Assembly: GCA_963780165.1 (NCBI GenBank)
Contig: CAWABB010000008.1
Location: 6,451 to 70,450 of the forward strand
Source of the DNA: an uncultured Ignavibacteria bacterium
Lineage (GTDB): Bacteria > Bacteroidota > Ignavibacteria > UBA10030 > UBA6906
DNA length: 64,000 nt
Direction of reading: 5' to 3'
The notes under the pieces were generated by a model. It was not told the DNA's origin. It did not search any database and saw only the letters and a list, made by a program, of their open reading frames with translations. Position 1 is the stretch's first letter. Each line of letters begins with the position of its first letter. Below, piece after piece: positions 3,642 to 18,441 of the stretch. A program made the position numbers and the translations under genes.

Positions 3642-4049
3642 ATGCCACGACATCTCAAACCAGGCACACGTCCTCCGGTCCTCATCGTCGAGGACAGCGT
3701 GGACTTCTCGAATCTTCTCAAGTTCATCGTCGAAGACGAGGGCTATGAAGGGCTTCAGTTTCCTCTGGGCGACGCGGACATCGTGGCCTGGGTGGAAGAG
3801 CACAAGCCTGCCGTGATCCTCATGGACCTGGCCCTGCGAAGGAAGGGGGGGGTCGAGTACATTAACGACCTGCAGGCGAACGCGGAGACGAAGAAGATAC
3901 CCATCATCATCATCTCCGGCCGCGAGCTGCTGCAAAAAGAGGTCCTCGAGTTCCAGGCGCGTGGCATCCGTTATCTCAGGAAGGGACGCGTCGAGGTTCA
4001 GGAGATCAAGGACGAAATCCGGAAGGCGACCACGGCCGCCGGCCACTGA
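3642..4049 (+). CDS. Single-domain response regulator (CheY-like receiver)
   Basis: The receiver fold begins at PVLIVEDSVDFSNLL and includes ILMDLALRRKGG and IPIIIISG. The internal ATG at 3642 is preferred over the ORF start at 3540, which would add a non-receiver leader. Confidence 0.75.
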   Translation: MPRHLKPGTRPPVLIVEDSVDFSNLLKFIVEDEGYEGLQFPLGDADIVAWVEEHKPAVILMDLALRRKGGVEYINDLQANAETKKIPIIIISGRELLQKEVLEFQARGIRYLRKGRVEVQEIKDEIRKATTAAGH

Positions 4050-4076
4050 AATCGGATTCTGGAGGGCAGCCGGGAC

Positions 4077-4550
4077 ATGACTGTTCGCTGTCCGTCAATC
4101 GACGAGAAAGGCTTCTTCCCGGTGCGGTTCGTTCGAGCCGGCACACCGGGCTCCCGCAACACGTCCCCGGCCATCGAATGGTCGGACCCGCCTGAGGGAA
4201 CGGTCTCGTTCGCCCTGACAATCATCGATCGGCATCCGATTGCGCATGATTGGGTCCACTGGTGTGTCGTCGACATCCCCGCATCTGTCCGCGCCCTGGC
4301 TGAAGGGGCATCGGGAGGGTCGATGCCGGCTGGTTCTCGTGAGCTGGGGAATACGTTCGGCCACGCTGGATACGGCGGCCCGCAACCGCCGCGTGGGTCC
4401 GGGATCCACGAGTACTACGTCACGATCCACGCGCTCCGCGCATCAGGCGTACGTGCCGATGCACGAGTAGGGCCTGACAAGATTCAGGCGGCGATCGGCT
4501 CGGCCGAGATTACGTCGTCAACCATCGTAGGACGATATGAATCCCGCTGA
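4077..4550 (+). CDS. YbhB/YbcL-type phosphatidylethanolamine-binding protein (PEBP/RKIP family)
   Basis: GYGGPQPPRGSGIHEYYVTIHAL and SPAIEWSDPPEGTVSFALTIIDRHP match the bacterial PEBP signature. GGAGGG lies 10 nt upstream of the ATG. Confidence 0.8.
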   Translation: MTVRCPSIDEKGFFPVRFVRAGTPGSRNTSPAIEWSDPPEGTVSFALTIIDRHPIAHDWVHWCVVDIPASVRALAEGASGGSMPAGSRELGNTFGHAGYGGPQPPRGSGIHEYYVTIHALRASGVRADARVGPDKIQAAIGSAEITSSTIVGRYESR

Positions 4551-5235
4551 GCCGGGGATCCGATCTCGCGCCCAGGTCCATGATCTCTCCTCATACCTGC
4601 AGACCCTGCTCGAAGAGGAGCGGAAGAGGATCGCCCGGGATATTCACGACGATCTCGGCCAGGAGCTGGCGTCGATCAAGCTTGAGATCGCTCTTGTGCT
4701 CAGGGAGCTCCCGGAGAGCACGAGAGCTGCCCGCAGCCGCCTCGAAAGCGTCGAAGCGCTGGTGGACTCCTCCATTCGATCCGTCAAGCGCATAATCACC
4801 GAACTCCGACCATACGTTCTGGACGACCTCGGCCTGACTGCTGCCATCGAATGGCAAACGGCCGAATTCCAGAAACGAACAGGGCTTCCCGTCACGGTCT
4901 CCATCTATCCGGGAGAGATTATCCTCGATGCCGAGCGGTCTACAGCTCTCTTCAGAATCCTGCAGGAGGGGCTTGCGAATGTCGCGCGGCACGCTGGGGC
5001 GACGCGAGTGTCCGTGAGCCTGACGGAGATCGATGGGGTTATCGAGTTCGAGCTCCGTGACGACGGGTGCGGTATCACGCCGGAACAAATCAATGACCCG
5101 CGCTCATTCGGCCTCATCGGCATACGGGAGAGGGTCCGGACACTGGGGGGGGGCTCTGAAATCCTCGGGGGCTGTGGTGACGGGACCCGGCTTGCTGTGA
5201 AATTCGCCGCGACTGACGATACGCTCGCGCCATGA
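4537..5235 (+). CDS. Sensor-less cytoplasmic histidine kinase (HisKA_3 + HATPase, NarL-partner type)
   Basis: H-box RIARDIHDDLGQEL, N-box LQEGLANVARHA and G-box DDGCGI are present. At 232 aa it has no TM helix or input domain. It overlaps the PEBP gene by 14 nt. Confidence 0.8.
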   Translation: MNPAEPGIRSRAQVHDLSSYLQTLLEEERKRIARDIHDDLGQELASIKLEIALVLRELPESTRAARSRLESVEALVDSSIRSVKRIITELRPYVLDDLGLTAAIEWQTAEFQKRTGLPVTVSIYPGEIILDAERSTALFRILQEGLANVARHAGATRVSVSLTEIDGVIEFELRDDGCGITPEQINDPRSFGLIGIRERVRTLGGGSEILGGCGDGTRLAVKFAATDDTLAP

Positions 5236-5864
5236 TACGCATCTGCCTTGCAGACGATCACACGATGTTTCGCGAAGGGATCAAGCAGATCCTTGCGAGC
5301 CACTCGGACATGCACATAGTTGCCGAAGCAGGAGACGGGCGCGAAACCCTTGAACTTGTCAGGAGCATCCCGATGGACGTTGTGCTCCTCGACATCAGCA
5401 TGCCAGGCCTCAGCGGGCTGGACATTCTTCAGGACATCAAGGGGGAGTTTCCGCGGGTCAAGGTGCTCGTCCTCAGCATGCATCCGGAAGACCAGTATGC
5501 CATCCGGGTTCTGAAGTCCGGGGCGGCAGGCTATCTCACGAAGGAGAGCGCTGCCGCAGAGCTTGTCTCAGCGATCCGCACGGTTGCGGGAGGCGGATCG
5601 TATGTCAGCAGCCACCTCGCACAGACGCTGGCGGCCTCATTGCGTTCTGAATGGGATCTGCTCCCTCATCACCTGCTGTCTGACCGTGAATTCCAGGTTA
5701 TGCGAATGTTGGCGCTGGGGCGGAGGGTCCGGGAAATTGCCGACGAACTCTCCCTGAGCGAGAAGACTATCACGACCTATCGTGCGCGCGTCCTCGAAAA
5801 GATGAGACTCCGCACCAACGTGGACGTTACACGGTACGCGCTCCTTCACCGGCTTATCACCTGA
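5232..5864 (+). CDS. NarL/LuxR-family response regulator (REC + HTH_LuxR)
   Basis: MIRICLADDHTMFREG..VVLLDISMPGLSG receiver followed by a C-terminal LSDREFQVMRMLALGRRVREIADELSLSEKTITTYR helix-turn-helix. ATGA overlap with the kinase gene. Confidence 0.9.
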   Translation: MIRICLADDHTMFREGIKQILASHSDMHIVAEAGDGRETLELVRSIPMDVVLLDISMPGLSGLDILQDIKGEFPRVKVLVLSMHPEDQYAIRVLKSGAAGYLTKESAAAELVSAIRTVAGGGSYVSSHLAQTLAASLRSEWDLLPHHLLSDREFQVMRMLALGRRVREIADELSLSEKTITTYRARVLEKMRLRTNVDVTRYALLHRLIT

Positions 5865-5879: not shown

Positions 5880-7127
5880 CTACACCCAGCCCCTGAGCTT
5901 GCACGCTTCCGCGACGCGAGCCACACCGACAACCATCGCTCCCAGCCGCGGGTGGACTTTTTTCTCACGGACCGCTTCCTGGACGGTCCTGTAGGCGTTC
6001 GTGAGCTTCTTGTCGAGGCGCTCGTGCACACGTTCTTCTTCCCAGAAGAACGAATACTTGTCCTGCACCATTTCGAAGTATGAGACGGTAACTCCGCCTG
6101 CGCTCGCAAGGATATCCGGGATCACATGGATCCCCTTCTGGGCGAGAACAGGGTCCGCCTCGGGCGTCGTCGGCCCGTTCGCAAGCTCGCAGACAACCTT
6201 CGCCCGGATGCGGTCCACGTTTCGCTCGTTAATGGCGTTTTCGAGTGCGGCGGGGTAGAGGATGTCAACGGGAAGCTCAAGGACCGAGTCGCGATCCATC
6301 GGTTGGCCCCCGGGGAAACCCACCACCGATCCGGTTTTGAGCTTATGGGTGACGAGGTCTTTCGGGTTGAGGCCGGCCGGATTCGTAATGCCTCCCCGTG
6401 AGTCGCATGCGGCCACAAGGGTTCCCCCGCCGAGCAGTTCCTGGTGCAGCAGCGCCGCCCGCTGCCCCGCGTTTCCGAAACCCTGAATCGCGTACGTCCC
6501 CCGGGGATCTATCCGGAGGAGCCTGCACGCCTCACGGACGGTGATGACCCCTCCACGTGCGGTGGCGTCACGCCTCCCCTCCGTGCCGCCGATCTGCTGC
6601 GGCTTGTCGGTGAGGACCCCAGGCTCGTGCCGCTGGATGAGGGTCTCATATTCGTCCATCATCCAAGCCATCGTCTGAGGATTCGTGTAGACGTCGGGGG
6701 CGGGGATGTCCTTGTCCGTCCCGATCAGCGGGGCCACCGCCCGGACATACGCCCGGGAAATGTTCTCCAATTCCCGCTCGGAAAGCCGCCGTGGGTCGCA
6801 CACCACGCCTCCCTTGCCGCCGCCGAGCGGGAGGTCCACCACGGCGGTCTTCCACGTCATCCAACCTGCCAGGGCCCGAATCGTGTCCACGGTCTCATCG
6901 GGGTGAAACCGGATTCCGCCTTTCGCGGGCCCGCGGGCGTAGTTGTGTTGTATCCGCCACCCCTGAAAGATGCGAACCGTTCCGTCATCCATGCGTACAG
7001 GCATGGTGAACGAGTGTTCCCGCTGCGGCCACAGAAGGAGTTCGATGGTCGCGTCGTCAAGTCTGAGGATGCGAGCTGCCTCGCGCACCTGCTGCTGCTC
7101 GACAGAGAAGCTGTTGTAGGAAGTCAT
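5880..7127 (-). CDS. Glutamate dehydrogenase, ~415-aa Glu/Leu/Phe/Val dehydrogenase type (paralogue 3)
   Basis: GPAKGGIRFHPDET, PLGGGKGGVVCDPRRLSERELE and a C-terminal Rossmann domain (IQGFGNAG). The ATG at 7127 forms an ATGA overlap with the upstream small ORF. The longer ORF-track start at 7223 would only add a non-homologous leader. Confidence 0.85.
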   Translation of the reverse strand: MTSYNSFSVEQQQVREAARILRLDDATIELLLWPQREHSFTMPVRMDDGTVRIFQGWRIQHNYARGPAKGGIRFHPDETVDTIRALAGWMTWKTAVVDLPLGGGKGGVVCDPRRLSERELENISRAYVRAVAPLIGTDKDIPAPDVYTNPQTMAWMMDEYETLIQRHEPGVLTDKPQQIGGTEGRRDATARGGVITVREACRLLRIDPRGTYAIQGFGNAGQRAALLHQELLGGGTLVAACDSRGGITNPAGLNPKDLVTHKLKTGSVVGFPGGQPMDRDSVLELPVDILYPAALENAINERNVDRIRAKVVCELANGPTTPEADPVLAQKGIHVIPDILASAGGVTVSYFEMVQDKYSFFWEEERVHERLDKKLTNAYRTVQEAVREKKVHPRLGAMVVGVARVAEACKLRGWV

Positions 7128-7336
7128 GGGCTCTGCTCTCTTCGGTGGTCCTTGCGCGGCGATTTCCCCCCGGCTCCGGGCGGGTGAACTTCCAGCATGA
7201 TTCTGTACCAGCAGTGCTTGCACATGAGTGCCCGGTCAACATTGAGCAGGACCTTTTCCCACGGGCTCAGGGGGTGGCCGCAGTGCGGACAGGCCTCGAA
7301 CACGGGGGGGGATGTGTCGTGAGTTTCATCGGGCAT
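7124..7336 (-). CDS. Small zinc-ribbon protein (70 aa), hypothetical
   Basis: CPHCG-x22-CKHC (two CxxC pairs). The start overlaps the stop of the upstream 1004-aa gene by 11 nt and the stop overlaps the GDH start (ATGA). Third-position G/C bias is gene-like. No family recognised. Confidence 0.45.
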   Translation of the reverse strand: MPDETHDTSPPVFEACPHCGHPLSPWEKVLLNVDRALMCKHCWYRIMLEVHPPGAGGKSPRKDHRREQSP

Positions 7337-10300
7337 TTCCGGTCTCCGGTTTCAGAATCACTCCCTTGTTGAGGTGGCCGTTGATCTTGATCGTCAATGA
7401 GTGCTCGAGCCTGACCAGCCTGGTCCATTGAGCCGTCTCGAGCGCCGGCTGTTCGACCAGCCAGTTCCAGTCGAGAAACCCCAGATGCGCGTGCGCGTTC
7501 ACGGTGAAATAGCCGACCATGAACGACGTGATGTTCTGGAAGAAATGCGTCCCCTGCGAGGGCGCGACGGCGATTTCTTTGAATCCCGCTTCTACGATTG
7601 CCCGGGCGCCGGCAATGTCTTTCCATGCCACGGGGATTCCAAGCCACGGGTCGAGGGATCCCCAGCGTCCCACGCCGATCAGGAGGTAGGGGCGACCTTC
7701 CGTGATCAGGCGGTTGTTGAAGGTGGCGACCTCGCGCGCGACATCCCGGCTGCGCGAGCGATCGAACGTGTGAACGTCGACAAAAACAATATCCCGGATG
7801 TCTTCGATAAGCCCGTTCCCGAGCACCATCGTGCTCTCGCAGAGAAGCTGGGAGCGATCGGTCACATCGACCGTGAGCGCCTCAGGTTCTCGGTGGATCA
7901 CGAGGGGGCGCATCTGTAACAGTGCGAATTCCTTCGGCTCGCCTCGCGGGCGGGCGAGGTTTACTGCAAATTCGACCTCCACCGGCGTCCCCATCCCCCA
8001 CGTGCCCATATCCAGTATTAACTCCAGGATCTGAGCGAGGGGGAGGAGCTTGTGTCGCAAAACGGGATGGAAGGTGACCACGCGAATACCGGGACGGGCG
8101 ATGCCGTCGTAGATGACGTCGTTTTCCGGCGAGTAGGTCGATCCCACATACCGGAGCGTGTCGTCCTGCTCGGCGACGGTGAGCTCGTGGAGTTTGAGCA
8201 GCACGTCGTGCGTCTCGGCCCCGAAGTCGGTCGGCGCGTCCATCTCCAGCGCGAAGAACTGGCGCTGTGTGCTGTTGATGGTCTCCTCCACGGAATAGAA
8301 CTGGATGTTGTCGGTGGGATATTTCGGGCAGAACCTGACGGCGTTTCCGCCGTCGACGACCGTCTTTCCGAGGCCCAGGGCAACAGAGACGACGCCGTCC
8401 GCCGATTTTTGGGGCGGGATGGGGTAGAAATTGTACGCCTTCCCCACGCCGGCGAAGTCGGGATAGAAACGCCCGTCGTGCTGTGCCCCGACCATCTTTT
8501 GGACGATGACCGCCATCTTCTCCTCCTCCAGGCGGTAGGAAGTGACGCGAAAGTAATCCTTGGTACCCTGATAGAAGGTCGAGGCGTATACGCGCTTGAT
8601 ACTGTTCAGGAGATCGTTCAGGCGGACGAGCGGATCGGCATTCGCGTTCGGAAGCATGTACGTCTCGTAGACTCCCGCAAAGGGATGATACTGGGAATCC
8701 TCCATGAGGCTCGAAGAGCGGACGGCCAGCGGCGAGCGCACAAGATCCAGGAAGGCGACAAGATCTGCCAGGACAACGGCCGGAAACTTCGATGCCGTGA
8801 GGAATCGCCTCGTGATCTCCCGGTCGTCGGTGCACGTCATACCGAATGTGCGGAGGTTGTTCTCTTCCACGAACTGATCGAACACCTCCGTCCCGACAAC
8901 GACAGCGGGAGGGACGAGGATCTGAACACCCTCGAATCTGTCACGGACACTGTAGTCGTTCAGGAGCGTGCTGACGAACCCCAGGCCACGGGCTTTCCCG
9001 CCCAGCGAGCCTCCGCCGATTCGCGCGAAGCTTGAGTCCGGATCAAACGTCTCTTTTGTGAAATCGGCGATGATGCCGCGCTGGCGGATATTCCTGTAAT
9101 CGTGGAGCGACGCGATCAGGTGCTCGCGCAGCGCCCCGACTGAGGGATAGTCCGACACTTTGCGCGGGCGGAGCTGGTGGGCGAGCCAAAATTCCGTCCG
9201 GGCTTTCAGCCAGTTAGAGAAGTGGTTCCGCTCGGCATGATAGCGGATACTTTCCCCGGGGACCTCCCCCAGTCGCTCTTCGAGAGAGCGCAGGTCGGTG
9301 GCCCGGCCCACCTCGCGGCCATCAGGCAGCCGGAACACGAAATCGCCGAACGAAAACTGGTGGAACATAAACTCTCGGAGCTCGGTCAGCAGCAGGGGAG
9401 AGCCCTTGATGACGAATCTGCAGCCTGCCCGTCTTGCTTCGTCCTCGGCATCCGCCATCGTGGAAAGCAGCAGGATCGGCACGTCCGGCTGATCGGCTTT
9501 GATCGTGCGTGCGAGCACGATCCCTGCCCGGGAATCCTGGACCCCGTCGCGGGGGAAATCGATGTCCGACAGGATGCCCAGGACGAAATCACGATAGCGC
9601 TGGTAGTATCCGAACGCTTCCTCGTACGAGGTCGCAAGGAGGATCTTCGGCCGCGCCCGCATGCGGAGGAATTTATGCGTGAGATTGATGCCTTCGGAGA
9701 TGAGTCCCTGCGACTGCTTTAGCAGTTCCGTGTAGATGATCGGCAGAAAGGAGGAGTAGTGCTTGACGTTGTCCTCGACGACGATCACCGTCTGCACGCC
9801 GACCATCCGCGTGTCGTGATCGACGTTCATCCTGTCCTCGAGGTACTTGATGATCGCGATAATGATCCGGAAATCCCCCTGCCAGATGAAGACGCGATCG
9901 AAGACCGAGGTGTCGGTGTTCAGGAGGAGGTGCTTCAGCTCCAGGTTGTCATGTGCCAGAAGCACGACGGGGATGTCGATGCCGGAGGCGCGCGCCATGC
10001 GTGCAAAGTCGACGGCGTGCATGTCGTCGATGTGGAGCGTCGTGATGATGAGATCGAAGCGGCGCTCCTCGCGGGCGAGACGGATGGCATCGCGGCCGCT
10101 GGAGACGCGCGTCAGCTCGGGGCTGTGACTGAGGTTGAAACCCTGGTATTCGTTGCGGATAAGTTCGTAGAGGCGACCGTCTTCCTCGAAGAGGTACAGA
10201 TCGTAGAGGCTTGAGACCAGGAGGATGTCCCTGATCCTTAGCCGCATGAGATTCTGGAACCCCTGAAAGCGGTTCCCGTAGCCATGCTCGACGAGCAACG

Positions 10301-10340
10301 TATCGAGCATGCCGGAGACATCATCGGGCGGGCCTGTCAT
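7326..10340 (-). CDS. Degenerate receiver + canonical receiver + PEP/pyruvate-binding (PPDK_N ATP-grasp) protein, paralogue 1
   Basis: 1004 aa. REC-like 1 lacks the acceptor Asp (FDLIITTLHIDDM), while REC 2 is canonical (VIVVEDN, GILSDIDF, ILLLST, VIKGSP). PPDK_N motifs GGKARGLGF and AVRSSSLMEDS..PFAGVYETY are present. Confidence 0.8.
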   Translation of the reverse strand: MTGPPDDVSGMLDTLLVEHGYGNRFQGFQNLMRLRIRDILLVSSLYDLYLFEEDGRLYELIRNEYQGFNLSHSPELTRVSSGRDAIRLAREERRFDLIITTLHIDDMHAVDFARMARASGIDIPVVLLAHDNLELKHLLLNTDTSVFDRVFIWQGDFRIIIAIIKYLEDRMNVDHDTRMVGVQTVIVVEDNVKHYSSFLPIIYTELLKQSQGLISEGINLTHKFLRMRARPKILLATSYEEAFGYYQRYRDFVLGILSDIDFPRDGVQDSRAGIVLARTIKADQPDVPILLLSTMADAEDEARRAGCRFVIKGSPLLLTELREFMFHQFSFGDFVFRLPDGREVGRATDLRSLEERLGEVPGESIRYHAERNHFSNWLKARTEFWLAHQLRPRKVSDYPSVGALREHLIASLHDYRNIRQRGIIADFTKETFDPDSSFARIGGGSLGGKARGLGFVSTLLNDYSVRDRFEGVQILVPPAVVVGTEVFDQFVEENNLRTFGMTCTDDREITRRFLTASKFPAVVLADLVAFLDLVRSPLAVRSSSLMEDSQYHPFAGVYETYMLPNANADPLVRLNDLLNSIKRVYASTFYQGTKDYFRVTSYRLEEEKMAVIVQKMVGAQHDGRFYPDFAGVGKAYNFYPIPPQKSADGVVSVALGLGKTVVDGGNAVRFCPKYPTDNIQFYSVEETINSTQRQFFALEMDAPTDFGAETHDVLLKLHELTVAEQDDTLRYVGSTYSPENDVIYDGIARPGIRVVTFHPVLRHKLLPLAQILELILDMGTWGMGTPVEVEFAVNLARPRGEPKEFALLQMRPLVIHREPEALTVDVTDRSQLLCESTMVLGNGLIEDIRDIVFVDVHTFDRSRSRDVAREVATFNNRLITEGRPYLLIGVGRWGSLDPWLGIPVAWKDIAGARAIVEAGFKEIAVAPSQGTHFFQNITSFMVGYFTVNAHAHLGFLDWNWLVEQPALETAQWTRLVRLEHSLTIKINGHLNKGVILKPETGNAR

Positions 10341-10357
10341 TGCAGTGTCCTCCCGGA

Positions 10358-10386
10358 AAGATAGGGAATCCCGGGCTGTGGTGAAA
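10358..10386 (-). promoter_or_regulatory. Candidate sigma-70-type promoter for paralogue 1 (TTTCAC-N17-TATCTT)
   Basis: The minus strand reads TTTCAC cacagcccgggattccc TATCTT about 20 nt upstream of the ATG at 10340. The -10 sits inside the recurring TTCCCTATC motif, but the -35 is weak. Confidence 0.3.
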
Positions 10387-10402
10387 GTCCGCCTACATAT
10401 CG

Positions 10403-10431
10403 GAGAGAGACGGGGGAAACCCGTCTCTCTC
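10403..10431 (-). terminator. 12-bp GC-rich hairpin downstream of gdhA paralogue 1
   Basis: GAGAGAGACGGG-ggaaa-CCCGTCTCTCTC starts 22 nt after the stop at 10453. It has no U-tract, so it could act as a terminator, attenuator or RNA-stability element. Confidence 0.4.
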
Positions 10432-10452
10432 GCGCGCGGCGAAGTGCCGGAC

Positions 10453-11814
10453 CTAGACGATTCCCTGGTCCATCATTGCGTCTGCGACCTTCAAGAACCC
10501 GCCGATATTAGCGCCGTTGACGTAGTTCCCGGGAGTCCCGAACCGATCGGCCATTTCGACGCACGTGCGGTGGATGCTCCTCATGATCTGACGGAGGCGC
10601 AGGTCGACCTCGTCTTTCGGCCACGGGAGGCGCATGCTGTTCTGGGCCATCTCCAGCCCAGAGACCGCGACGCCACCGGCATTCGCTGCCTTGCCCGGCC
10701 CGTAGAGGATTCCGGCATCCAGAAAAGTCTTGACTCCGTCTGGCGTCGTGGGCATGTTAGCACCCTCGGACACGCACGCCACGCCGTTGCGGACCAGGTT
10801 CGCCGCGTCTCTGCCGTTAATCTCGTTTTGCGTCGCGCTCGGGAACGCGCAGTCGGCCTTGTGGTCCCACAGTGGGTTATGGTCCATCGAGCCATCGAGC
10901 GCGGCGTACGTCGCCGAACGGTATTTTGTTGTGTACTCCTGAATCCTTCCGCGGCGGACATTCTTGAGTTCCATCACGTATGCCAGCTTTTCCGCCGAGA
11001 TTCCTTCTGCGTCGTAGATGTATCCGTTCGAGTCGGAGAGCGTGACGGCCTTCCCGCCGAGCTGGTTGATCTTCTCGACGGTGTACTGCGCAACGTTGCC
11101 GCTACCGGAAACGAGGCAGATCTTCCCGTCGAGCGTCTTCCCTTTTGTCGCGAGCATCTCTGCCGCGAAATACACCGCCCCATAGCCGGTGGCCTCAGGC
11201 CGGATCAGCGAGCCGCCCCAATTCAGCCCCTTGCCCGTGAGGACCCCGGTGAATTCGTTCCTGAGTTTCTTATACTGTCCGAACAGGTACCCGATCTCCC
11301 TTCCGCCCACACCGATATCGCCTGCGGGGACGTCCGTGTCGGCCCCGATGTGCCTGAAGAGTTCGCTCATGAAGGCCTGGCAGAACCGCATGATCTTCAG
11401 ATCGCTCTTTCCCTTCGGATCGAAATCTGACCCGCCCTTTCCGCCCCCCATCGGAAGCGTCGTCAGGCTGTTCTTGAACACCTGTTCAAAGGCCAGGAAC
11501 TTCAGGATGCCCTGCGTGACCGACGGGTGAAACCGGAGTCCTCCCTTGTACGGGCCGATCGCGCTATTCATCTCAATCCTGTATCCCCGGTTCACGTGGA
11601 TTTCTCCCTGTTCGTCGACCCAGGGGACCCGGAACGTGATGATCCTTTCAGGCTCGACGATGCGCTCGAGAACCTTTGCAGCCTGGTACTCCGGGTGCCG
11701 CTCGAACACGAGCGTGAGCGATTCCGCGACTTCCTGGACTGCTTGATGGAACTCCCCTTCCGCCGGGTTCTTCGCCTTGACCTCCGCCATAAGGTCGCGT
11801 ACGTAGTCTGACAT
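10453..11814 (-). CDS. gdhA: NADP-type glutamate dehydrogenase (E. coli GdhA-like hexameric class), paralogue 1
   Basis: GPYKGGLRFHPSVTQGILKFLAFEQVFKNSLTTLPMGGGKGGSDFDPKGKSD and DTDVPAGDIGVGGREIGYLFGQYKKL closely match the GdhA family throughout. GGAGG lies upstream of the ATG at 11814. Confidence 0.95.
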   Translation of the reverse strand: MSDYVRDLMAEVKAKNPAEGEFHQAVQEVAESLTLVFERHPEYQAAKVLERIVEPERIITFRVPWVDEQGEIHVNRGYRIEMNSAIGPYKGGLRFHPSVTQGILKFLAFEQVFKNSLTTLPMGGGKGGSDFDPKGKSDLKIMRFCQAFMSELFRHIGADTDVPAGDIGVGGREIGYLFGQYKKLRNEFTGVLTGKGLNWGGSLIRPEATGYGAVYFAAEMLATKGKTLDGKICLVSGSGNVAQYTVEKINQLGGKAVTLSDSNGYIYDAEGISAEKLAYVMELKNVRRGRIQEYTTKYRSATYAALDGSMDHNPLWDHKADCAFPSATQNEINGRDAANLVRNGVACVSEGANMPTTPDGVKTFLDAGILYGPGKAANAGGVAVSGLEMAQNSMRLPWPKDEVDLRLRQIMRSIHRTCVEMADRFGTPGNYVNGANIGGFLKVADAMMDQGIV

Positions 11815-11878
11815 TGTGCCTCCAAACGTGGTGAGTGTGGTCCCTGCACGGCCGACGCGTTGGTCGGGTTGCAGGTGG

Positions 11879-11907
11879 AGGATAGGGAACTGTCGGATTG
11901 CGGTGTA
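11879..11907 (-). promoter_or_regulatory. Candidate promoter for gdhA paralogue 1 (TACACC-N17-TATCCT)
   Basis: The minus strand reads TACACC gcaatccgacagttccc TATCCT about 65 nt upstream of the ATG. It contains the recurring TTCCCTATC motif, but the -35 is weak. Confidence 0.3.
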
Positions 11908-11964
11908 TCGGCGGGACGCGCGAAAGGATGTGGGGAAATCCCTACAGGGCCAACGGGGACGTTC

Positions 11965-14943
11965 TCAGACGCCCGGCTTCGTGATCACTCCGAGATTCTG
12001 CTGGCCGCTGATATGAACGCTGAACGGCTGGCCGAAACGAAGGTGCCGCGTGGATCCGATTTCCTCCGTCGCGGGCTGCTGAAGCAGCCACTCCCAGTCA
12101 ACGAAGCCGACGTCCGCGGACTGGTTCACCGTGAAGTAGCCAACGCGGAAGCTGGTGATGTTCTGGAAGAAATGAGAGCCCTGGGATGGGGTGACGCTGA
12201 AATCCCTGAACCCGCATTCGACGATTGCGCATGCGCCTGCAATCTGATCCCATGTCACGGGGACCCCCAGCCAGTGATCAAGGCTTCCCCAGCGCCCCAC
12301 CCCGATGAGCACGTACGGCCGCTTCTGGTCGACGAGCTTCGCGTTCAGCCGGCTCACCTCCTCGGCGGTTTCGCGGCTGCGACCACGGTCGAACTTGTGG
12401 ATGTCCACCATGATGATGTCGTACAGGTCGTTGTAGGCGCCATTCCCGAGCACCTGGGTGCTCCGGCAAATCAGGCCTTCGTCGGGGACGTCCTCTGTGC
12501 GAAGCTGCTCGGGTTCATAGCTCATCACGAGCGGCCGGATCTGCAGGAACGCAAACTCCTTCGGCGCGTTGGCCGGGACCAGCAAATTGACTGCGAATTC
12601 GATTTCGACTGCCGTGCCCATCCCCCACGAGCCCATTTCAAGCACGAGGTCCAGGATTTCCGGAAGAGGGAACACCTTGTGTTTCAGGATGGGGGCGAAC
12701 GTGACCACGCGCCTCCCGCTTCGGGATGTCCCATCGTACACGCTTTCGTTCTCGGGCGAGTATGTTGACCCGACGTGAAAGAGCGTCCCGTCGGATTCGG
12801 CGGCGGTCAGAGGGAACCGAACCATGAACCCCGCAGGATCATCCATTCCGTCCGTCAGGGCGCGCCCAAGGTCCAGGGCATAGAAATCCTGCTGGGCGTT
12901 CCGGATCGTCTCGAGCGTAGAGAAAAACTGCAGGAGATGACGTGGATACTTCGGACAGAACCGGACGGTGTTCCCGCCCTCGACAACCGTCTTGCCGAGC
13001 CCCAACGCCACGAGCACAATGCCGTCATCTGATTTCTGCGGGGGTACCGGGTAGAAGTTGTATGATTTCCCGACGCCGGCGAAATCGGGATAGAATCTTC
13101 CGTGGCGCTCGGCACCCACCATCCTCTGAATAATGACCGCCATCTTCTCCTCCTCGAGGCGGTATGAGGTCGCCTTCATATAGTCTTTCGCCTTCCGGGA
13201 GAAGGCCGATGCGTAGACGAGCTTCACCGTATAGAGGAGCTGTTGCAGCCGGGCCTCATGACTCGGGTGGTTGTTCGGGATCATGTAGGTCTCGTACACG
13301 CCGGCGAACGGCTGGTACTGCGAGTCCTCAAGGAGGCTCGACGAACGCACGGCGAGCGGTTCGCGGATGAGGTCGAGGAAATCCGAGAGCCGATAGAGGA
13401 TGTCTCCCGGGAACTTCTCCGCCGAGACGAACCGTCGCTGAATCTCCGCGTCGTCGGAAGTCTGCAGCGCCCACGCGAACAGGTTGTTCTCCTCCAGGTA
13501 TCGGTCGAAGACGTCTGTTGCGATCACCACGGCTGACGGGACGGAGATTTCGACGCCAGGGAACCGGTCGTGGATGCCGTACGTGTTGATCAGCGTATTG
13601 ATAAACCCCAGGCCGCGAGCCTTTCCGCCGAGGGATCCGCTCCCGATGCGTGCGAAGCTGTTCTTCGGGTCGAACGACTCCCTGCTGAAGTCGGAGATCA
13701 CGCCCCGTTGCCGCATCCCGCGGTACTCGCGCAGCGAGGAGATGAGCTCCTCGCGGAGGTCGGCGACGCTCGCGAAATCGGTGACCTTGTGAGGCCTGAG
13801 GCGATCGGCCAACCAGAATTCGGTCCTCGCCTTCAGCCAGTTGGAGAAATGGTTTCGCGACGCGTGGAAGACGATGCATTCGTCCGGCACCGACATCAGC
13901 TGGGCTTCGAGCGTGAGAAGATTGTGCGCGCGGCCGACCTCTGAGCCGGAGGCGTCCCGGAACACGAAATCGCCGAAGCCGAAATTGTCCAGCATGAATT
14001 GCCGGAGCTCGTGATGGAGCCGCGGCGACTGCTTCAGCAGGAAGGACACGCCGAGCGCGCGGGCGCGCAACTCCATATCCGGGCTGCTGGACTGCAGCAG
14101 AATCGGGATGTCCGTGTATTCGCGCTTCACCATTTCAGCGAACCGGAGCCCGCCCTCCGGGTCCTTTACGCCATTGCGCTTGAAGTTGATGTCAGAGATG
14201 ATGCCGAGGAGCGTCTCCTGGTATTTCTCGAAATAAGCCCACGCCTCCTCATATGTCGCGCAGAGAAGGATCTTGGGCCGGGCGCGCATGCGGAGGAAAC
14301 GGTGGCTGAGATTGACGCCCTCGGAGATCAGACGCTGCGACTGGTTCAGGATCTCCGTGTAGATGATGGGGAGGTATGATGAGTAGAACTTGACGTCGTC
14401 TTCCAGGAGGATGATGGACTGGACGCCGACCGCCTTTGTATCGCTGTCGACGTTGAGCCGGTCCTCGAGCGATTTGATGATGGCGATGATCAGCCGGTAG
14501 TCTCCCTGCCAGATGAAGATGCGGTCGAAGACTGTCGTGTCGTAGTGCGTCACGATCTCCTTCCGCTCGCGGTTGTCATAGGCCAGGAGGACGATCGGAG
14601 TGTCCAGGCCGCTTTCGCGCACGCGCTGTGCGAACCTGACCGCGTTCATGTCCTCGATGTGCAGGGTCGTAATGATCAGGTCGAACGGGCCTTCCTGGTC
14701 GAGAACCTCCATCGCCTCCGCGCTGGTCGTGACGTGCGTAAGTTCGGGCGGGTGGCTCAGGTTGAGCCCCTGGAACTCCTGGCGGATCAGCTCGTACAAC
14801 CGGCCGTCTTCCTCGAACAGGTACTGGTCGTAGAGGCTGGCGACCAGAAGGATGTCACGGACTTTGAAGCGCATCAGCTTCCGGAAGCTCTTGATGCGTG
14901 ATCCTTCGATGTCTTCGATGTTCAGATGGTGGGGTGCGGCCAT
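11965..14943 (-). CDS. Degenerate receiver + canonical receiver + PPDK_N ATP-grasp protein, paralogue 2
   Basis: 992 aa, collinear with the 1004-aa paralogue over its full length. Motifs: FDLIITTLHIEDM, IILLEDD, GIISDINF, GGKARGLGF and AVRSSSLLEDSQYQPFAGVYETY. Confidence 0.8.
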   Translation of the reverse strand: MAAPHHLNIEDIEGSRIKSFRKLMRFKVRDILLVASLYDQYLFEEDGRLYELIRQEFQGLNLSHPPELTHVTTSAEAMEVLDQEGPFDLIITTLHIEDMNAVRFAQRVRESGLDTPIVLLAYDNRERKEIVTHYDTTVFDRIFIWQGDYRLIIAIIKSLEDRLNVDSDTKAVGVQSIILLEDDVKFYSSYLPIIYTEILNQSQRLISEGVNLSHRFLRMRARPKILLCATYEEAWAYFEKYQETLLGIISDINFKRNGVKDPEGGLRFAEMVKREYTDIPILLQSSSPDMELRARALGVSFLLKQSPRLHHELRQFMLDNFGFGDFVFRDASGSEVGRAHNLLTLEAQLMSVPDECIVFHASRNHFSNWLKARTEFWLADRLRPHKVTDFASVADLREELISSLREYRGMRQRGVISDFSRESFDPKNSFARIGSGSLGGKARGLGFINTLINTYGIHDRFPGVEISVPSAVVIATDVFDRYLEENNLFAWALQTSDDAEIQRRFVSAEKFPGDILYRLSDFLDLIREPLAVRSSSLLEDSQYQPFAGVYETYMIPNNHPSHEARLQQLLYTVKLVYASAFSRKAKDYMKATSYRLEEEKMAVIIQRMVGAERHGRFYPDFAGVGKSYNFYPVPPQKSDDGIVLVALGLGKTVVEGGNTVRFCPKYPRHLLQFFSTLETIRNAQQDFYALDLGRALTDGMDDPAGFMVRFPLTAAESDGTLFHVGSTYSPENESVYDGTSRSGRRVVTFAPILKHKVFPLPEILDLVLEMGSWGMGTAVEIEFAVNLLVPANAPKEFAFLQIRPLVMSYEPEQLRTEDVPDEGLICRSTQVLGNGAYNDLYDIIMVDIHKFDRGRSRETAEEVSRLNAKLVDQKRPYVLIGVGRWGSLDHWLGVPVTWDQIAGACAIVECGFRDFSVTPSQGSHFFQNITSFRVGYFTVNQSADVGFVDWEWLLQQPATEEIGSTRHLRFGQPFSVHISGQQNLGVITKPGV

Positions 14944-14969: not shown

Positions 14970-14998
14970 ATGATACGGGATTGGCGTCAGACGGTCAA
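14970..14998 (-). promoter_or_regulatory. Candidate sigma-70-type promoter for paralogue 2 (TTGACC-N17-TATCAT)
   Basis: The minus strand reads TTGACC gtctgacgccaatcccg TATCAT with 17-nt spacing, 26 nt upstream of the ATG at 14943 and directly after the hairpin at 15008-15027. Confidence 0.5.
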
Positions 14999-15007
14999 GA
15001 ACGCGAA

Positions 15008-15027
15008 AGCCTCCCGGTCGGGAGGCT
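15008..15027 (-). terminator. Intrinsic-terminator-like hairpin after gdhA paralogue 2
   Basis: AGCCTCCC-ggtc-GGGAGGCT. On the minus-strand RNA it is followed by UUCGCGUUCUU. It lies 28 nt after the stop at 15056. Confidence 0.5.
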
Positions 15028-15055: not shown

Positions 15056-16396
15056 TCAGACGAGGCCCTGGTCCATCATGGCGTCGGCGACTTTGAGGAA
15101 GCCGGCGATGTTGGCCCCGACCACGTAGTTTCCAGGCGCGCCGAACTTCTCGGCGGTCGTCAGGCATGTGCTGTGGATGTTTCGCATGATCTGGTGGAGG
15201 CGCTGGTCCACCTCTTCTTTCGGCCACGGCAGGCGCATGCTGTTCTGGCTCATTTCGAGGCCGGAGGTCGCCACACCGCCCGCGTTGGAAGCCTTGCCGG
15301 GCGAGAAGAGGACCTTCGCGTCCTGCAGCACTTTGACGCCGCCGAGGGTCGTCGGCATGTTGGCGCCTTCGCACACGCAGACGCAGCCGTTGTTCACCAG
15401 CTCACGGGCGTCGTTCTCGTCCAGCTCGTTCTGCGTCGCGCAGGGGAGGGCCACATCTGCCTTCACGACCCATGGACGCTTTCCCGGGTGGAATGGAACC
15501 TTGAACTTGTCAGCGTAGTCCTGGACGCGGTCATGGCTGCTGGAGCGCATCTCCAGCATGTATTCGATCTTCTCGCCGCGCACGCCCGCTTCGTCGTACA
15601 CGAAGCCGTCGGGGCCGGAGAGCGTCACGACGCGCGCGCCGAGCTGGGTCGCTTTCTGCGCGGCGCCCCACGCGACGTTGCCGAATCCCGACACGGCGAC
15701 GACTTTCCCTTCGAACGTTTGCCCGCGGGTCTTCAGCATCTCTTCCGCGAAATAGACGACGCCGTAGCCGGTGGCTTCGGGACGGACGAGCGATCCGCCC
15801 CAGTTCAGCCCCTTGCCCGTGAGCACGCCCGAGAACTCGCGCGTGAGGCGTTTGTACTGCCCGAACAGATAGCCGATCTCTCGCGTGCCGACGCCGATGT
15901 CGCCCGCCGGGACGTCCGTGTCCGGTCCGATGTGACGGAACAGCTCGGTCATGAAGCTCTGGCAGAACCGCATGATTTCGTGGTCACTCTTCCCTTTCGG
16001 ATCGAAATCAGATCCGCCCTTGCCGCCGCCCATCGGGAGGGAGGTGAGGCTGTTCTTGAAGACCTGTTCGAACGCCAGGAACTTCAGGATGCCGAGCGTG
16101 ACCGACGCGTGGAACCGGAGGCCCCCCTTGTACGGCCCGATTGCGCTGTTCATCTGGATGCGGAAGCCGCGGTTGATATGGACGTCGCCCTGGTCGTCGG
16201 TCCAGGGGACGCGGAACATGATGACCCGCTCCGGCTCAACCATGCGCTCGAGGATCTTCGCGCTGCGGTACTCCGGGTGACGCTGGAGCACCAGGTCCAG
16301 CGACTCCAGAACCTCCGTTACGGCCTGATGGAACTCGGGCTCTGCGGGGTTCTTTGCCTTCACCTGTGCTATGAGATTCTGAACGTATTGGGACAT
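15056..16396 (-). CDS. gdhA: NADP-type glutamate dehydrogenase (GdhA-like), paralogue 2
   Basis: MSQYVQNLIAQVKAKNPAEPEFHQAV aligns with the N-terminus of paralogue 1 and the same catalytic motifs are present. The ATG at 16396 is preferred to the ORF-track start at 16462. Confidence 0.95.
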   Translation of the reverse strand: MSQYVQNLIAQVKAKNPAEPEFHQAVTEVLESLDLVLQRHPEYRSAKILERMVEPERVIMFRVPWTDDQGDVHINRGFRIQMNSAIGPYKGGLRFHASVTLGILKFLAFEQVFKNSLTSLPMGGGKGGSDFDPKGKSDHEIMRFCQSFMTELFRHIGPDTDVPAGDIGVGTREIGYLFGQYKRLTREFSGVLTGKGLNWGGSLVRPEATGYGVVYFAEEMLKTRGQTFEGKVVAVSGFGNVAWGAAQKATQLGARVVTLSGPDGFVYDEAGVRGEKIEYMLEMRSSSHDRVQDYADKFKVPFHPGKRPWVVKADVALPCATQNELDENDARELVNNGCVCVCEGANMPTTLGGVKVLQDAKVLFSPGKASNAGGVATSGLEMSQNSMRLPWPKEEVDQRLHQIMRNIHSTCLTTAEKFGAPGNYVVGANIAGFLKVADAMMDQGLV

Positions 16397-16427
16397 TGTG
16401 ACTCCGCTCTGTTGTGATATCGCTTGT

Positions 16428-16446
16428 TCCGCCGGCCTTCGGCGGA
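16428..16446 (-). other. 7-bp hairpin in the 62-nt spacer upstream of gdhA paralogue 2
   Basis: TCCGCCG-gcctt-CGGCGGA lies between the stop at 16459 and the ATG at 16396, with no U-tract. It could be an RNA processing or attenuation structure. Confidence 0.25.
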
Positions 16447-16458
16447 CTGGGCCGGCCG

Positions 16459-17622
16459 TCACCTGCCAAAGAAGGCCGACACGATTTCCTCGTAGTCGCG
16501 GTCGACGAAATCCTGAAGCTCGCCCGCGTACATTTCATCCGCACCGGCGAGGTCGCTCCCCTCGGGAAGGGTGCGCGTCAGTTTCCTGGTCAGCGTCCGG
16601 AAGCGCTCCAGCTCCTCCTGATAGAACGCGACTGCCGCGTTGCCGATCTTCAGGTCCGGAAGCTCCGCGTCGAGCTTGTCGGCGTCGATGATACAGACCC
16701 AGTTGTTCTCGTACGGAGTCTTGTCGAGCGCCTCGGCTGAGCCCGAGAGCCTGCTGTTCACGTTCACCACTTTGCCGCTCACGGGGGAGCGGAACGTCAC
16801 GCGGCGCTTCCCGCGGCGGACGCTGAAGAGCGGCTGCCCTTTCGCTGCGATCATCCCGAGGTTGGGGAGCATCACTTCGTCCACCTTGCCGATGAGCTTT
16901 TTCGCGAAATCGTCGATCCCGACGCGGGTCTCGCCGTCTTCGTCAACGGCCGCCCAGGTGTGGCCGGAGGCGATGAACACGCCGCCGGGGATAGCGAACT
17001 CGTTCGCCCGGGTGCTCTCCGCGCCCGAGAGGTGCGTGATGCGCACGGTGGGCTTGAGCAGCTTCTGAATCCGATCCTGCCGGCGAATGAGCGACTTCTT
17101 CACGAAGGCGAGCAGTTCGTCCTCGGTGAACGGCTTCTGGACGTAGTCCATCGCGCCGTGCTTCATCGTTTCGACGGCGGTCTCGACGGTCGCATAGCCG
17201 GTGATGATGACGACGTCGATGTCGGGTCGGAGATGCTTCACGGCCTTTGTGACCTCGACCCCGTCCATCGCCGGCATCTTGAGGTCGGTGAAGACGAAAT
17301 CGTAATGGTGCGTCCGGATCAGCCCGAGCGCCTCCTGGCCAGTCTCCACCGTGTCGACGGCGTAGCCGTCGAGCACCAGGATCTTCCGGAAGCTGCCGAG
17401 AATGACCTCCTCGTCGTCCACGCACAGGATGCGCGCCTTCGGACTCTGGACCTCAGCCCGTTTGAGCGTCTTCGCTTCGCGGGTGAAGTCCAGGCGCAGG
17501 CTCTCGGAGAGCGCTGCCTCCCGCTCCGCCCGCGCTTTCTTCGCCCCGACACGGCGCGAGACCGCCCTGATCGCAATGTCTGCAATGATGAAGAGGATGA
17601 CGGCGACGATGAACGGAAGCAT
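16459..17622 (-). CDS. Membrane-anchored receiver (REC) - glycine-cleavage-H-like (GcvH-like) fusion protein
   Basis: N-terminal TM helix (LPFIVAVILFIIADIAI), receiver (ILCVDDEEV..FVFTDLKMPAMDG..VVIITGY..YVQKPF), then an H-protein-like barrel (HTWAAVDEDGETRVGIDDFA..VMLPNLG..SPVSGKVVNVN..PYENNWV). GAGGAG Shine-Dalgarno. Confidence 0.75.
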   Translation of the reverse strand: MLPFIVAVILFIIADIAIRAVSRRVGAKKARAEREAALSESLRLDFTREAKTLKRAEVQSPKARILCVDDEEVILGSFRKILVLDGYAVDTVETGQEALGLIRTHHYDFVFTDLKMPAMDGVEVTKAVKHLRPDIDVVIITGYATVETAVETMKHGAMDYVQKPFTEDELLAFVKKSLIRRQDRIQKLLKPTVRITHLSGAESTRANEFAIPGGVFIASGHTWAAVDEDGETRVGIDDFAKKLIGKVDEVMLPNLGMIAAKGQPLFSVRRGKRRVTFRSPVSGKVVNVNSRLSGSAEALDKTPYENNWVCIIDADKLDAELPDLKIGNAAVAFYQEELERFRTLTRKLTRTLPEGSDLAGADEMYAGELQDFVDRDYEEIVSAFFGR

Positions 17623-17634: not shown

Positions 17635-18441
17635 TCAGATGGTATCCGATCCGCAAGGGGTCAGGTGGGACAATTCATATTCGGGATTTGACGGGATGAT
17701 TCTGTACAGCCAACCGGCGAAGTACGGGTCTTTCTCGACAATGTGAGGGTCCGCGCCAAGGTCGGGGTTGCGCGCGATGACCTTGCCGCTGAGCGGGGAG
17801 AGGATGGCGTGCGTGAGCCCCTCGGCCGTCTCGATGCTCGCGCACCGGATGCCCTGGACAATATCTTCCTGTTCCTCCATGAAATCAAGGCGGCTGATCC
17901 GGTCCACCGTGCGCGCGAAGGCATGCGACACGCCGATAAGGGCAGTGCCGTCGCTGTCGAGCGTCGTCCAGCTCATGTAGCCCAGGCGGTAGTATCTGGG
18001 CGGGCAGGGGACGGTGAACAGCGGCGCGTCTTCCGGGGGACCGGTCCGTACGCTGCGGAGCGACACAAGATCGCGGTACCGCAGCCCCCGCTTCAGCGTC
18101 GACAGCAACTCGTCGGCGGTGAACGGCTTTGGGACGAAGTCGATGGCGCCCGCATACAGCGAGCGCACAGCGTTTTCGACGGTGGAGTAGCCGGTCGAAA
18201 TGATCACCGGCGTCTCAGCCGAGCGACGCTGCACCTGGGCGAGCACTTCGAATCCGTCCATCTCCGGCATCATGATGTCGCACATTACCAGACGGTAGTG
18301 GTGCGCCTCCAGCGCGCGCAATGCCGAGGCGCCGTCCCGGGCGGTCTCCACGGTAAGGCCTTCCGCCGTGCAAATGTGGCGGACCGCCTCGAGCACGACG
18401 TCTTCGTCGTCGATGACAAGGATGTCGGTCTCGCTGGCCAT
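17635..18441 (-). CDS. Soluble receiver (REC) - GcvH-like fusion protein
   Basis: Receiver (ILVIDDEDV..LVMCDIMMPEMDG..VIISTGY..FVPKPF) followed by an H-protein-like domain (GYMSWTTLDSDGTALIGVSHFA-type, SPLSGKVIARN, DPYFAGWLYRI). Confidence 0.75.
   Translation of the reverse strand: MASETDILVIDDEDVVLEAVRHICTAEGLTVETARDGASALRALEAHHYRLVMCDIMMPEMDGFEVLAQVQRRSAETPVIISTGYSTVENAVRSLYAGAIDFVPKPFTADELLSTLKRGLRYRDLVSLRSVRTGPPEDAPLFTVPCPPRYYRLGYMSWTTLDSDGTALIGVSHAFARTVDRISRLDFMEEQEDIVQGIRCASIETAEGLTHAILSPLSGKVIARNPDLGADPHIVEKDPYFAGWLYRIIPSNPEYELSHLTPCGSDTI

Follow-up and report, generated by a model that had tools for sequence, protein, structure and literature searches.

The window analysed here, 64,000 nucleotides of DNA from an uncultured Ignavibacteria bacterium, carries two paralogous genes whose products, of 1004 and 992 amino acids (aa), we refer to by the working labels PprA and PprB. 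In both proteins a pseudo-receiver and a receiver are followed by a linker, a PPDK_N-type ATP-grasp domain and a C-terminal domain, and both genes lie among three genes of the glutamate dehydrogenase (GDH) family. PprA and PprB belong to a widespread, uncharacterised family of response regulators that has a new C-terminal domain of ~180 aa; its strong genomic association with GDH is, as far as we found, apparently unreported. In the interpretation that we put forward, and to which we give an even chance, the core formed by the ATP-grasp and C-terminal domains works together with GDH, and the Ppr proteins are ATP-dependent, receiver-gated, post-translational regulators dedicated to this enzyme.

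Linkage of the Ppr family to glutamate dehydrogenase genes

The two genes are part of a series of eight head-to-tail genes on the minus strand (20314-5880), which encode, in this order, a kinase, two regulators with a GcvH-like output, GDH3, PprB, GDH2, PprA and GDH1 (Table 1). The initial annotation, which was made from the sequence of the window, had placed each of the two proteins beside a GDH gene, and the assignment of these neighbours was borne out, since all three contain the Pfam domains ELFV_dehydrog_N and ELFV_dehydrog. GDH2 and GDH3 reach 746 and 756 bits with the NADP-GdhA model NF006929 (cut-off 536). The substrate of GDH1 is less certain, because its NCBIfam GdhA_Arch score of 535 bits is under the cut-off of 750.

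The GDH3-PprB-GDH2-PprA-GDH1 array, or one of its units GDH3-PprB (for example at locus L148) and GDH2-PprA-GDH1, is conserved across 80 loci of Ignavibacteriota and Bacteroidota, and GDH1 follows PprA in all 78 of these related loci that extend beyond the PprA gene. In order to look beyond close relatives, a wider sample was drawn from one genome per GTDB species using a degenerate DNA pattern for the protein motif WG[ST]xD..LG[IV]P ... HFF. The first 120 matching stretches in file order were taken, a selection that is blind to neighbouring genes and to overall similarity. A GDH gene was present in 50 of the 120 surrounding 8-kb segments, and it was directly adjacent in 21 of the 35 loci in which both flanks could be evaluated. 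The Ppr-GDH pairs are separated by a median gap of 139 bp and share the same strand in 30 of 38 cases, with GDH on either side. When the 256 nearest open reading frames (ORFs) were clustered, the GDH cluster contained 40 ORFs from 39 loci, all of them immediate neighbours, and the next cluster contained 5. By a rough estimate, which assumes one to a few GDH genes among thousands of genes, chance alone would place a GDH gene next to the family gene in about 0.1% of loci.

Direct GDH neighbours occur across more than 12 phyla of bacteria and in two lineages of archaea. The linked bacteria belong to Bacteroidales, Flavobacteriales, Ignavibacteriota, Acidobacteriota, Myxococcota, Gemmatimonadota, Desulfobacterota and Chloroflexota, and additionally to Actinomycetota, Eisenbacteria, Neomarinimicrobiota, Cloacimonadota, Caldisericota, Spirochaetia and Gammaproteobacteria; the linked archaea include Hermodarchaeota and Thermoplasmatales. 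Among the linked genera are Alistipes, Prevotella, Phocaeicola, Gillisia and Polaribacter. The Ppr-GDH pair was found in 53 of 80 Bacteroidaceae loci, and cultured strains that carry it include Phocaeicola vulgatus ATCC 8482 (L208), Alistipes montrealensis (L182), Gillisia sp. Q332 (L108) and Parabacteroides (L358, L362). In Phocaeicola paurosaccharolyticus (L235), as in Parabacteroides, the family gene lies between two GDH genes.

Proteins that consist of the PPDK_N and C-terminal domains without any receiver also adjoin GDH (L091, L098, L141, L194 and L196). A Dehalococcoidia contig (L141) carries GDH followed by such a core, and the other four loci have the order distant core, core, GDH, in which the GDH is GDH1-like and the two cores are the unfused counterpart of the tandem proteins described below. 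The linkage thus tracks the ATP-grasp and C-terminal core rather than the receivers.

Domain organization of PprA and PprB

PprA and PprB are encoded by intact ORFs and are collinear over 985 residues, with 61% identity and 2 gaps, as the initial annotation had proposed for two paralogues. Scores of single receivers with PF00072 amount to 19-20 bits, under the gathering score of 30.2, and the assignment of the receiver fold therefore rests on the AlphaFold2 (AF2) model, which has (beta-alpha)5 secondary structure at residues 36-180 and 183-328 of PprA, and on Foldseek, which pairs the N-terminal part of PprA with the PleD tandem receivers (E 3e-7) and also with LuxO, PhoP and DivK. We consider the first of the two units a pseudo-receiver because the acceptor Asp, the acidic pair and the Lys are all missing. 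In PprA, S43-S44 stand where the acidic pair is expected, the acceptor Asp is exchanged for T101 and the Lys is absent; the residue at the acceptor position of PprB is Thr93. The motifs FDLIITTLHI[D/E]DM and ILLVSSLYD / ILLVASLYD, on which the same view had been founded earlier, are present as quoted. Furthermore, the acceptor position is occupied by M, T or F, and never by Asp, in an alignment of 44 diverse relatives that are 34-60% identical to PprA.

The second receiver has the hallmark residues that had been claimed for both proteins, namely E189-D190, D259 (codon 9564-9566), S293 and K312 in PprA, located at predicted strand ends, and E181-D182, D251, S285 and K304 in PprB. Among the 44 relatives, retention is 42/44 for E189, 35/44 for D190, 39/44 for D259, 41/44 for S/T293 and 40/44 for K312. 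Since these residues are kept family-wide, gating by phosphorylation of receiver 2 is plausible. As in the PleD-type tandem-receiver regulators, two receiver folds with one phospho-acceptor stand ahead of an enzyme domain; unlike in PleD, the pseudo-receiver precedes the receiver, the output domain is of the ATP-grasp and not of the GGDEF type, and PF00072 stays below threshold. The linker that follows is strongly conserved (FGDF.FR...HA.RNHFS.WLKARTEF) and weakly DUF5752-like, with a PF19027 match of E 1e-4 and 22.1 bits against a cut-off of 23. The full-length AF2 model shows the two (beta-alpha)5 units, a helical linker, the ATP-grasp domain and an alpha/beta C-terminal domain; it is of moderate quality (pLDDT 68.7, pTM 0.45), and its inter-domain geometry was set aside.

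The PPDK_N assignment of the initial annotation, which was based on the motifs GGKARGLGF and AVRSSS..EDS..PFAGVYETY, stands: both motifs are present, and Pfam detects PF01326 with E values of 1.4e-35 and 3.1e-36 over profile positions 3-316 of 328, together with weak Response_reg matches. The ATP-grasp motifs of PprA are GGKARG, AVRSSS.EDS..FAG and MAVIVQ, and the domain matches rifampin phosphotransferase both by Foldseek (5hv2/5hv6, E ~1e-6) and by phmmer (5hv6). With the NCBIfam equivalogs PpsA, RPH and PigC, the ATP-grasp segment alone is matched, at 15-62 bits against cut-offs of 456-1700.

The block that follows the ATP-grasp domain, quoted earlier as GVGRWGSLD.WLG[IV]PV ... SQG[TS]HFFQNITSF and attributed to a non-canonical C-terminal module, was likewise found, and the attribution agrees with our searches. 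No Pfam family was obtained for the C-terminal 190 aa, even at E values up to 10; a profile search of PDB sequences with the C-terminal domain gave no relevant chain and no PEP (phosphoenolpyruvate)-utilising enzyme; and Foldseek with the C-terminal model returned nothing at E<=1e-3 in PDB or BFVD. The best Foldseek match, LD-carboxypeptidase 1zl0, was rejected as a fold match because it is too weak (E 0.018, TM 0.35). The AF2 model of the isolated domain has a pLDDT of 87.1 and a pTM of 0.86. In the 44 sequences, the residues corresponding to G889, R892, W893, G894, S/T895, D897, L900, G901, P903, E917, S928, G930, H932 (codon 7545-7547), F933 and F934 of PprA are invariant, and N936 is kept in 43/44. 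The resulting signature is GRWG[ST]xD, E917 and SxG[ST]HFF; H924 and D251 of PprB are the counterparts of H932 and D259 of PprA. The C-terminal invariants persist in paralogues that are 26-30% identical, such as the second module of the tandem protein P0248, and their pattern looks like an active site. Both modules are apparently under selection for activity, because neither the ATP-grasp motifs nor the C-terminal residues vary among sequences of 34-60% identity.

The characterised PPDK_N enzymes PpsA, PPDK, RPH and PigC/RedH share the homologous N-terminal ATP-grasp domain (GGK, RSS.ED, FAG) with the Ppr proteins. Unlike PpsA, PPDK and RPH, the Ppr proteins have no detectable swivel with the histidine of the G-G-x-T-S-H (GG.T[SC]H) motif and neither the PEP/pyruvate TIM barrel nor the rifampin-binding domain; in their place stands the new C-terminal domain, the N-terminus carries two receiver-like domains, and GDH is a conserved neighbour of the genes. 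The absence of a visible swivel, which had been noted by eye, was upheld by every method used. The swivel family PF00391 was not detected at E<=0.01 in the full proteins or at E<=10 in the C-terminus, and Pfam found no PF02896 PEP/pyruvate domain or rifampin-binding domain in PprA or PprB. Alignment of the 44-sequence C-terminal profile with the swivels of E. coli PpsA and PtsI by hhalign gave a probability of <=2%, and the 540 Foldseek PDB matches of the confident model included no phosphohistidine domain of PPDK, PpsA, enzyme I or RPH. A reading of YLLIG.GRWGS...AIVE...SQG[ST]HFF...IKING....GVILKP as a degenerate mobile domain was also unsupported by Pfam, the PDB profile, Foldseek (PDB, BFVD) and hhalign. 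Because the swivel-His domain and the substrate domain are both missing, PprA and PprB are not PpsA-like dikinases or phosphotransferases, as far as these tools reach. The earlier suggestion of a PEP/pyruvate sensor found no support either, PPDK_N being a nucleotide-binding domain and a PEP/pyruvate-binding domain being absent.

Full-length homologues of PprA exist at 84-70% identity. A search with the C-terminal domain retrieved at least 1,553 clusters at 50% identity (E<=1e-3), 351 of them with E<=1e-30, and in all ten architecture variants that were scanned this domain lies downstream of PPDK_N. The variants include the ~1000-aa form with pseudo-receiver, receiver, linker, PPDK_N and C-terminal domain; forms of ~730-880 aa, some of which are probably N-terminally truncated gene calls; the stand-alone PPDK_N plus C-terminal domain of ~586 aa; and proteins of 1523-1654 aa in which this pair is present twice, with or without a C-terminal nucleotidyltransferase. 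Because the pair recurs across the scanned architectures, we regard the ATP-grasp and C-terminal domains as the conserved unit and the receivers as an add-on. The tandem proteins (P0248, P0255, P0268) have a central region without an assigned domain, and the nucleotidyltransferase (NTP_transf_2) was found in P0255 by scanning and in P0268 by eye. The family is also present in archaea (Hermodarchaeota, Thermoplasmata, Thalassarchaeaceae), and its members appear in databases as "PEP/pyruvate-binding domain-containing protein", "histidine kinase" or "CheY-like". None of the PADLOC anti-phage models matched PprA, PprB or the core on its own; in P0255, only the nucleotidyltransferase tail gave a weak match, to a candidate model.

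The gene array and its surroundings

The features of the array are listed in Table 1. The G+C content of the window is 62%. GDH1 probably starts at M33 (7127), which gives 415 aa, the length at which its relatives are called, and not at the upstream GTG; similarly, the start of GDH3 is probably M23 (16396) rather than the upstream GTG, which fits the family models.

Table 1. Genes and domains of the array, with positions in the window.
Feature	Position	Strand	Basis or remark
GDH1, Glu/Leu/Phe/Val-dehydrogenase family, nearest archaeal-type GdhA	5880-7223	-	Pfam, NCBIfam
PprA, pseudo-receiver/receiver/linker/PPDK_N ATP-grasp/C-terminal domain, 1004 aa	7326-10340	-	intact ORF
PprA C-terminal domain, residues ~826-1000	7341-7865	-	alignment of 44, AF2
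PprA PPDK_N-type ATP-grasp, residues 445-820	7881-9008	-	Pfam, Foldseek, phmmer
PprA linker, residues ~331-440	9021-9350	-	invariant columns; weak PF19027
PprA receiver 2, residues ~183-328	9357-9794	-	sequence, AF2 model
PprA pseudo-receiver, residues ~36-180	9801-10235	-	sequence, AF2 model, Foldseek
GDH2, NADP-GdhA-type glutamate dehydrogenase, between PprB and PprA	10453-11814	-	NF006929
PprB, same architecture as PprA, 992 aa	11965-14943	-	intact ORF
PprB C-terminal domain	11968-12492	-	
PprB PPDK_N	12511-13635	-	
PprB receiver 2	13984-14421	-	
PprB pseudo-receiver	14428-14862	-	
GDH3, NADP-GdhA-type glutamate dehydrogenase, upstream of PprB	15056-16462	-	NF006929
Response regulator with GcvH-like (PF01597) output	16459-17622	-	
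Response regulator with GcvH-like (PF01597) output	17635-18441	-	directly downstream of kinase 18446-20314
HAMP-HisKA-HATPase kinase	18446-20314	-	

Promoter-like and terminator-like sites were no commoner than in shuffled sequence, and no motif common to the four intergenic regions was found. Between each of GDH2 and GDH3 and the next Ppr gene, just past the stop codon, there is a G+C-rich hairpin without a T-run on the minus strand (~10400-10425 and ~14990-15010), GAGAGACGGG...CCCGTCTCTC and GCCTCCCG-ACC-GGGAGGC, both of which were missed by the terminator scan. These hairpins could reduce read-through into the Ppr gene.

The kinase of the array had been suggested as the phosphotransfer partner of the Ppr proteins. 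Conservation does not support this assignment: two REC-GcvH regulators directly after the kinase gene appear to belong to it, and in the relatives this kinase is absent from that position. By eye, the regulator encoded at 16459-17622 has a Lys at the lipoyl-lysine position (..SVRRGKRRVTFRSPVSGKV..) and the one at 17635-18441 a Glu. In the related locus L285, a stand-alone GCV_H protein is encoded beside Fer4-NrfD-multihaem cytochrome genes, divergently from GDH3. A cluster of this type also lies upstream of the kinase in the window (20318-23649, minus strand), with Fer4 (22750-23649), NrfD (21502-22746) and a multihaem cytochrome c. The 787-aa ORF listed at 20318-22681 overlaps the NrfD ORF and its cytochrome-family match is confined to the last ~300 aa; the true cytochrome gene is probably located at ~20318-21450, comparable to a 377-aa gene in L285.

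On the other side of the array, genes on the plus strand (3540-5864) converge with GDH1. The first codes for a receiver on its own (3540-4049) and the second for a PEBP-family protein (4077-4550); they are followed by the genes of a short kinase of the HisKA_3-HATPase type that lacks a sensor domain (4537-5235) and of a response regulator of the GerE type (5232-5864). Where this kinase lies, the closest relatives have a 634-aa dCache-HAMP form. An M64 (IgA-peptidase-like) protease is encoded at 129-1550 on the plus strand. The presence of this gene near the GDH/Ppr array in both the window and L285 indicates local synteny with Ignavibacteriota-like genomes, despite the G+C content of 62%.

Several neighbours recur in the loci of relatives. 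In Ignavibacteriota (L012, L022, L024, L026, L030, L040, L044, L047 and others), the region just past GDH1 often holds, on the opposite strand, a fourth and more distant gene of the ELFV-dehydrogenase type that shares 37-44% identity with GDH1; the window has no counterpart. In Muribaculaceae and related Bacteroidales, a coiled-coil protein of 450-570 aa is encoded immediately downstream of the family gene in 38 of 79 loci (L286-L364; for example L326:2156-3532), and a further example outside that set is L107:5448-7166. No Pfam family was found for this protein, its SMC-like hits being spurious. In 16 loci the coiled-coil gene is followed by a DPP-IV peptidase gene. At the Bacteroidales/Rikenellaceae loci with tandem paralogues (L111, L176, L163), the neighbours tend to be subunits of 2-oxoacid:ferredoxin oxidoreductases (POR/POR_N, TPP_enzyme_C), which, like GDH, act at the 2-oxoacid node.

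Proposed role, alternatives and significance

We propose that the core would act post-translationally on the adjacent GDH or GDHs, either by covalent modification, most simply phosphorylation, or by ATP-dependent remodelling or inhibition. The C-terminal domain, with His932, Ser/Thr895, Asp897 and Glu917, would replace the swivel-His and substrate domains of the dikinases and might be a catalytic or a target-docking module. In the ~1000-aa forms, the PleD-like pair of pseudo-receiver and receiver would put this activity under the control of Asp259 phosphorylation by a histidine kinase. As to the chemistry, it could be a phosphorylation that proceeds via His932 or Ser/Thr895, a direct transfer, a modification of another kind or a remodelling driven by ATP. 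As PprA lies between a GdhA-type and an archaeal-type GDH, it may exert coordinated, possibly opposite control of the assimilatory and catabolic enzymes, and the Phocaeicola and Parabacteroides genes located between two GDHs suggest a coordinated, possibly opposite control of isoenzymes. The initial annotation had offered the neighbouring GDHs or their substrates as possible targets, a suggestion that the gene neighbourhoods across phyla and domains of life strongly favour. The analysis shows the domain architecture, the lack of a detectable swivel or substrate domain, the conservation of the residues and the linkage, whereas we infer GDH itself as the target, the consumption of ATP and the gating of the activity by phosphorylation of Asp259; a regulator of the protein is favoured over a metabolic step because each GDH unit has one regulator and other pathway genes do not recur. 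In its most specific version, the proposal would describe the first dedicated covalent GDH switch in prokaryotes, under two-component control and extending from Bacteroidales to Asgard and Thermoplasmata, in which phosphate passes via the new His/Ser-bearing domain onto GDH; we consider this version possible, although somewhat doubtful.

It is important to mention that a number of observations weigh against the proposed regulation of GDH. The linkage is not universal: in a Muribaculaceae-centred set, GDH lies within 10 kb in only 13 of 79 loci, and the coiled-coil protein is met more often than any other direct neighbour, at about half of the loci. In Bacteroides timonensis and Bacteroides sp. 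GD17 there is no GDH at that distance, and subunits of 2-oxoacid:ferredoxin oxidoreductase adjoin the family genes in a few Bacteroidales loci. Moreover, no cognate histidine kinase is conserved beside the Ppr genes in the relatives' loci that were compared. The loop bearing His932 is the part with the lowest confidence in both the full-length and the C-terminal models, and we know of no protein kinase built on a PPDK_N ATP-grasp domain. The proposed action on GDH draws on genomic linkage, and adjacency is equally well compatible with a shared metabolic role or with shared regulation at the 2-oxoglutarate/glutamate node.

A cryptic dikinase is a doubtful form of the same proposal, from which it differs in chemistry only. 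Here, the C-terminal domain would be a diverged or convergent phosphocarrier, in which His932 or Ser/Thr895 is (pyro)phosphorylated by the ATP-grasp domain and the phosphate, in the manner of PpsA, PPDK and RPH, is passed on to GDH or to a small molecule. The invariant G-[ST]-H in a flexible loop fits such a role, the order of the C-terminal elements recalls, by eye, the swivel consensus, and weak Foldseek hits (E 0.02-0.8) were obtained to 1zl0, the carbamoyl-phosphate synthetase small subunit 1jdb_C, the PA domain 7f2d and GroEL, all of which we take to contain SCOP c.8 "swivelling beta/beta/alpha" domains, a fold class to which the phosphohistidine domain also belongs. However, all these fold hints have E>0.01 and TM<0.4, and the searches for a swivel by PF00391 (E up to 10), PDB profile, hhalign (<=2%) and the 540 Foldseek PDB matches, which contained no phosphohistidine domain, were negative.

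The loci with oxidoreductase genes could also be taken to indicate that the family protein is itself a metabolic enzyme at the 2-oxoglutarate/glutamate node, which would phosphorylate or ligate a small molecule linked to GDH (glutamate, 2-oxoglutarate, ammonium-derived compounds or NAD(P)) and provide two-component control of flux. The PPDK_N enzymes characterised so far, PpsA, PPDK, RPH, PigC/RedH and glucan water dikinase, are known in general to act on small molecules or glucans, and the best partial NCBIfam matches are to enzymes of the PpsA, RPH and PigC type. Nevertheless, we find this explanation unlikely: no further pathway gene recurs, which would leave any product without a visible next step, every GDH unit comes with a separate paralogue, known substrate-binding domains are lacking, and the scores are far under every equivalog cut-off (for example 62 against 883 bits).

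It appears very unlikely that the proteins are non-catalytic sensors or scaffolds, in which the ATP-grasp domain merely binds adenine nucleotides to read the energy charge and the protein binds, sequesters or allosterically controls GDH without modifying it. The linkage data are compatible with this, and protein partners are generally known to control other GDHs (GarA in mycobacteria, an APRT homologue in Thermus), whereas the full set of ATP-grasp catalytic motifs and the residues R892, S/T895, D897, E917, S928 and H932 (with N936 in 43/44) are kept down to 26-30% identity in an active-site-like manner. Finally, ordinary PpsA/PPDK/RPH-like enzymes fused to receivers, with the GDH adjacency due to coincidence or lineage-specific synteny, are hardly conceivable in spite of the database name "PEP/pyruvate-binding domain-containing protein" and the significant PPDK_N match, given that the swivel and the PEP/pyruvate or rifampin-binding domains are missing and that the adjacency extends over more than 12 phyla and archaea, as compared with the roughly estimated 0.1% by chance.

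The proposed role of the Ppr proteins as regulators of GDH resembles that of AceK (isocitrate dehydrogenase kinase/phosphatase) and GlnE (glutamine synthetase adenylyltransferase), each a large regulator that acts as a dedicated covalent switch of one enzyme of central metabolism; the resemblance concerns the possible mode of action only, and no relationship in sequence or fold was detected, the Pfam domains of the Ppr proteins being limited to PPDK_N and REC. Control of GDH at the protein level, as proposed here, is also generally known for GarA/FHA in mycobacteria, the APRT homologue in Thermus and GltC-RocG in Bacillus. Unlike the Ppr proteins, to which they are unrelated, these regulators are small, make no use of ATP and have neither PPDK_N nor a receiver. 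A REC-PPDK domain combination has been recorded in a census for Heimdallarchaeota and, implicitly, Bacteroides, and is almost certainly the architecture described here. The census gives the combination only, and mentions no function, missing swivel or link to GDH; a recent review devoted to pseudo-receivers is silent on this architecture. In our literature search, no paper was found that links PPDK_N or REC-PPDK proteins with GDH or describes the function of the family. The presumed locus tags BT1970-1973 of B. thetaiotaomicron could not be corroborated, BT1971 being a catalase. Yamamoto and co-workers reportedly described, in 1987, a reversible inactivation of the GDH of B. fragilis in vivo. 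A link between the Ppr family and this older work on Bacteroides GDH (Baggio & Morrison 1996; Yamamoto) is a hypothesis only.

The family is present in Phocaeicola, Prevotella, Alistipes, Parabacteroides, many environmental phyla and archaea, and its current names invite a misreading of its members as PEP synthases in metabolic reconstructions, which the domain tests contradict. GDH stands at the junction of carbon and nitrogen metabolism, and the Bacteroidales of the gut and rumen assimilate ammonia mainly through it. If the proposal is true, the Ppr family would add a new class of output to the response regulators and give the PPDK_N ATP-grasp a new partner domain, and a widespread, receiver-gated regulator dedicated to GDH would supply a missing layer of control for this central nitrogen enzyme, a hypothesis that is open to direct testing in cultured, genetically tractable gut bacteria.

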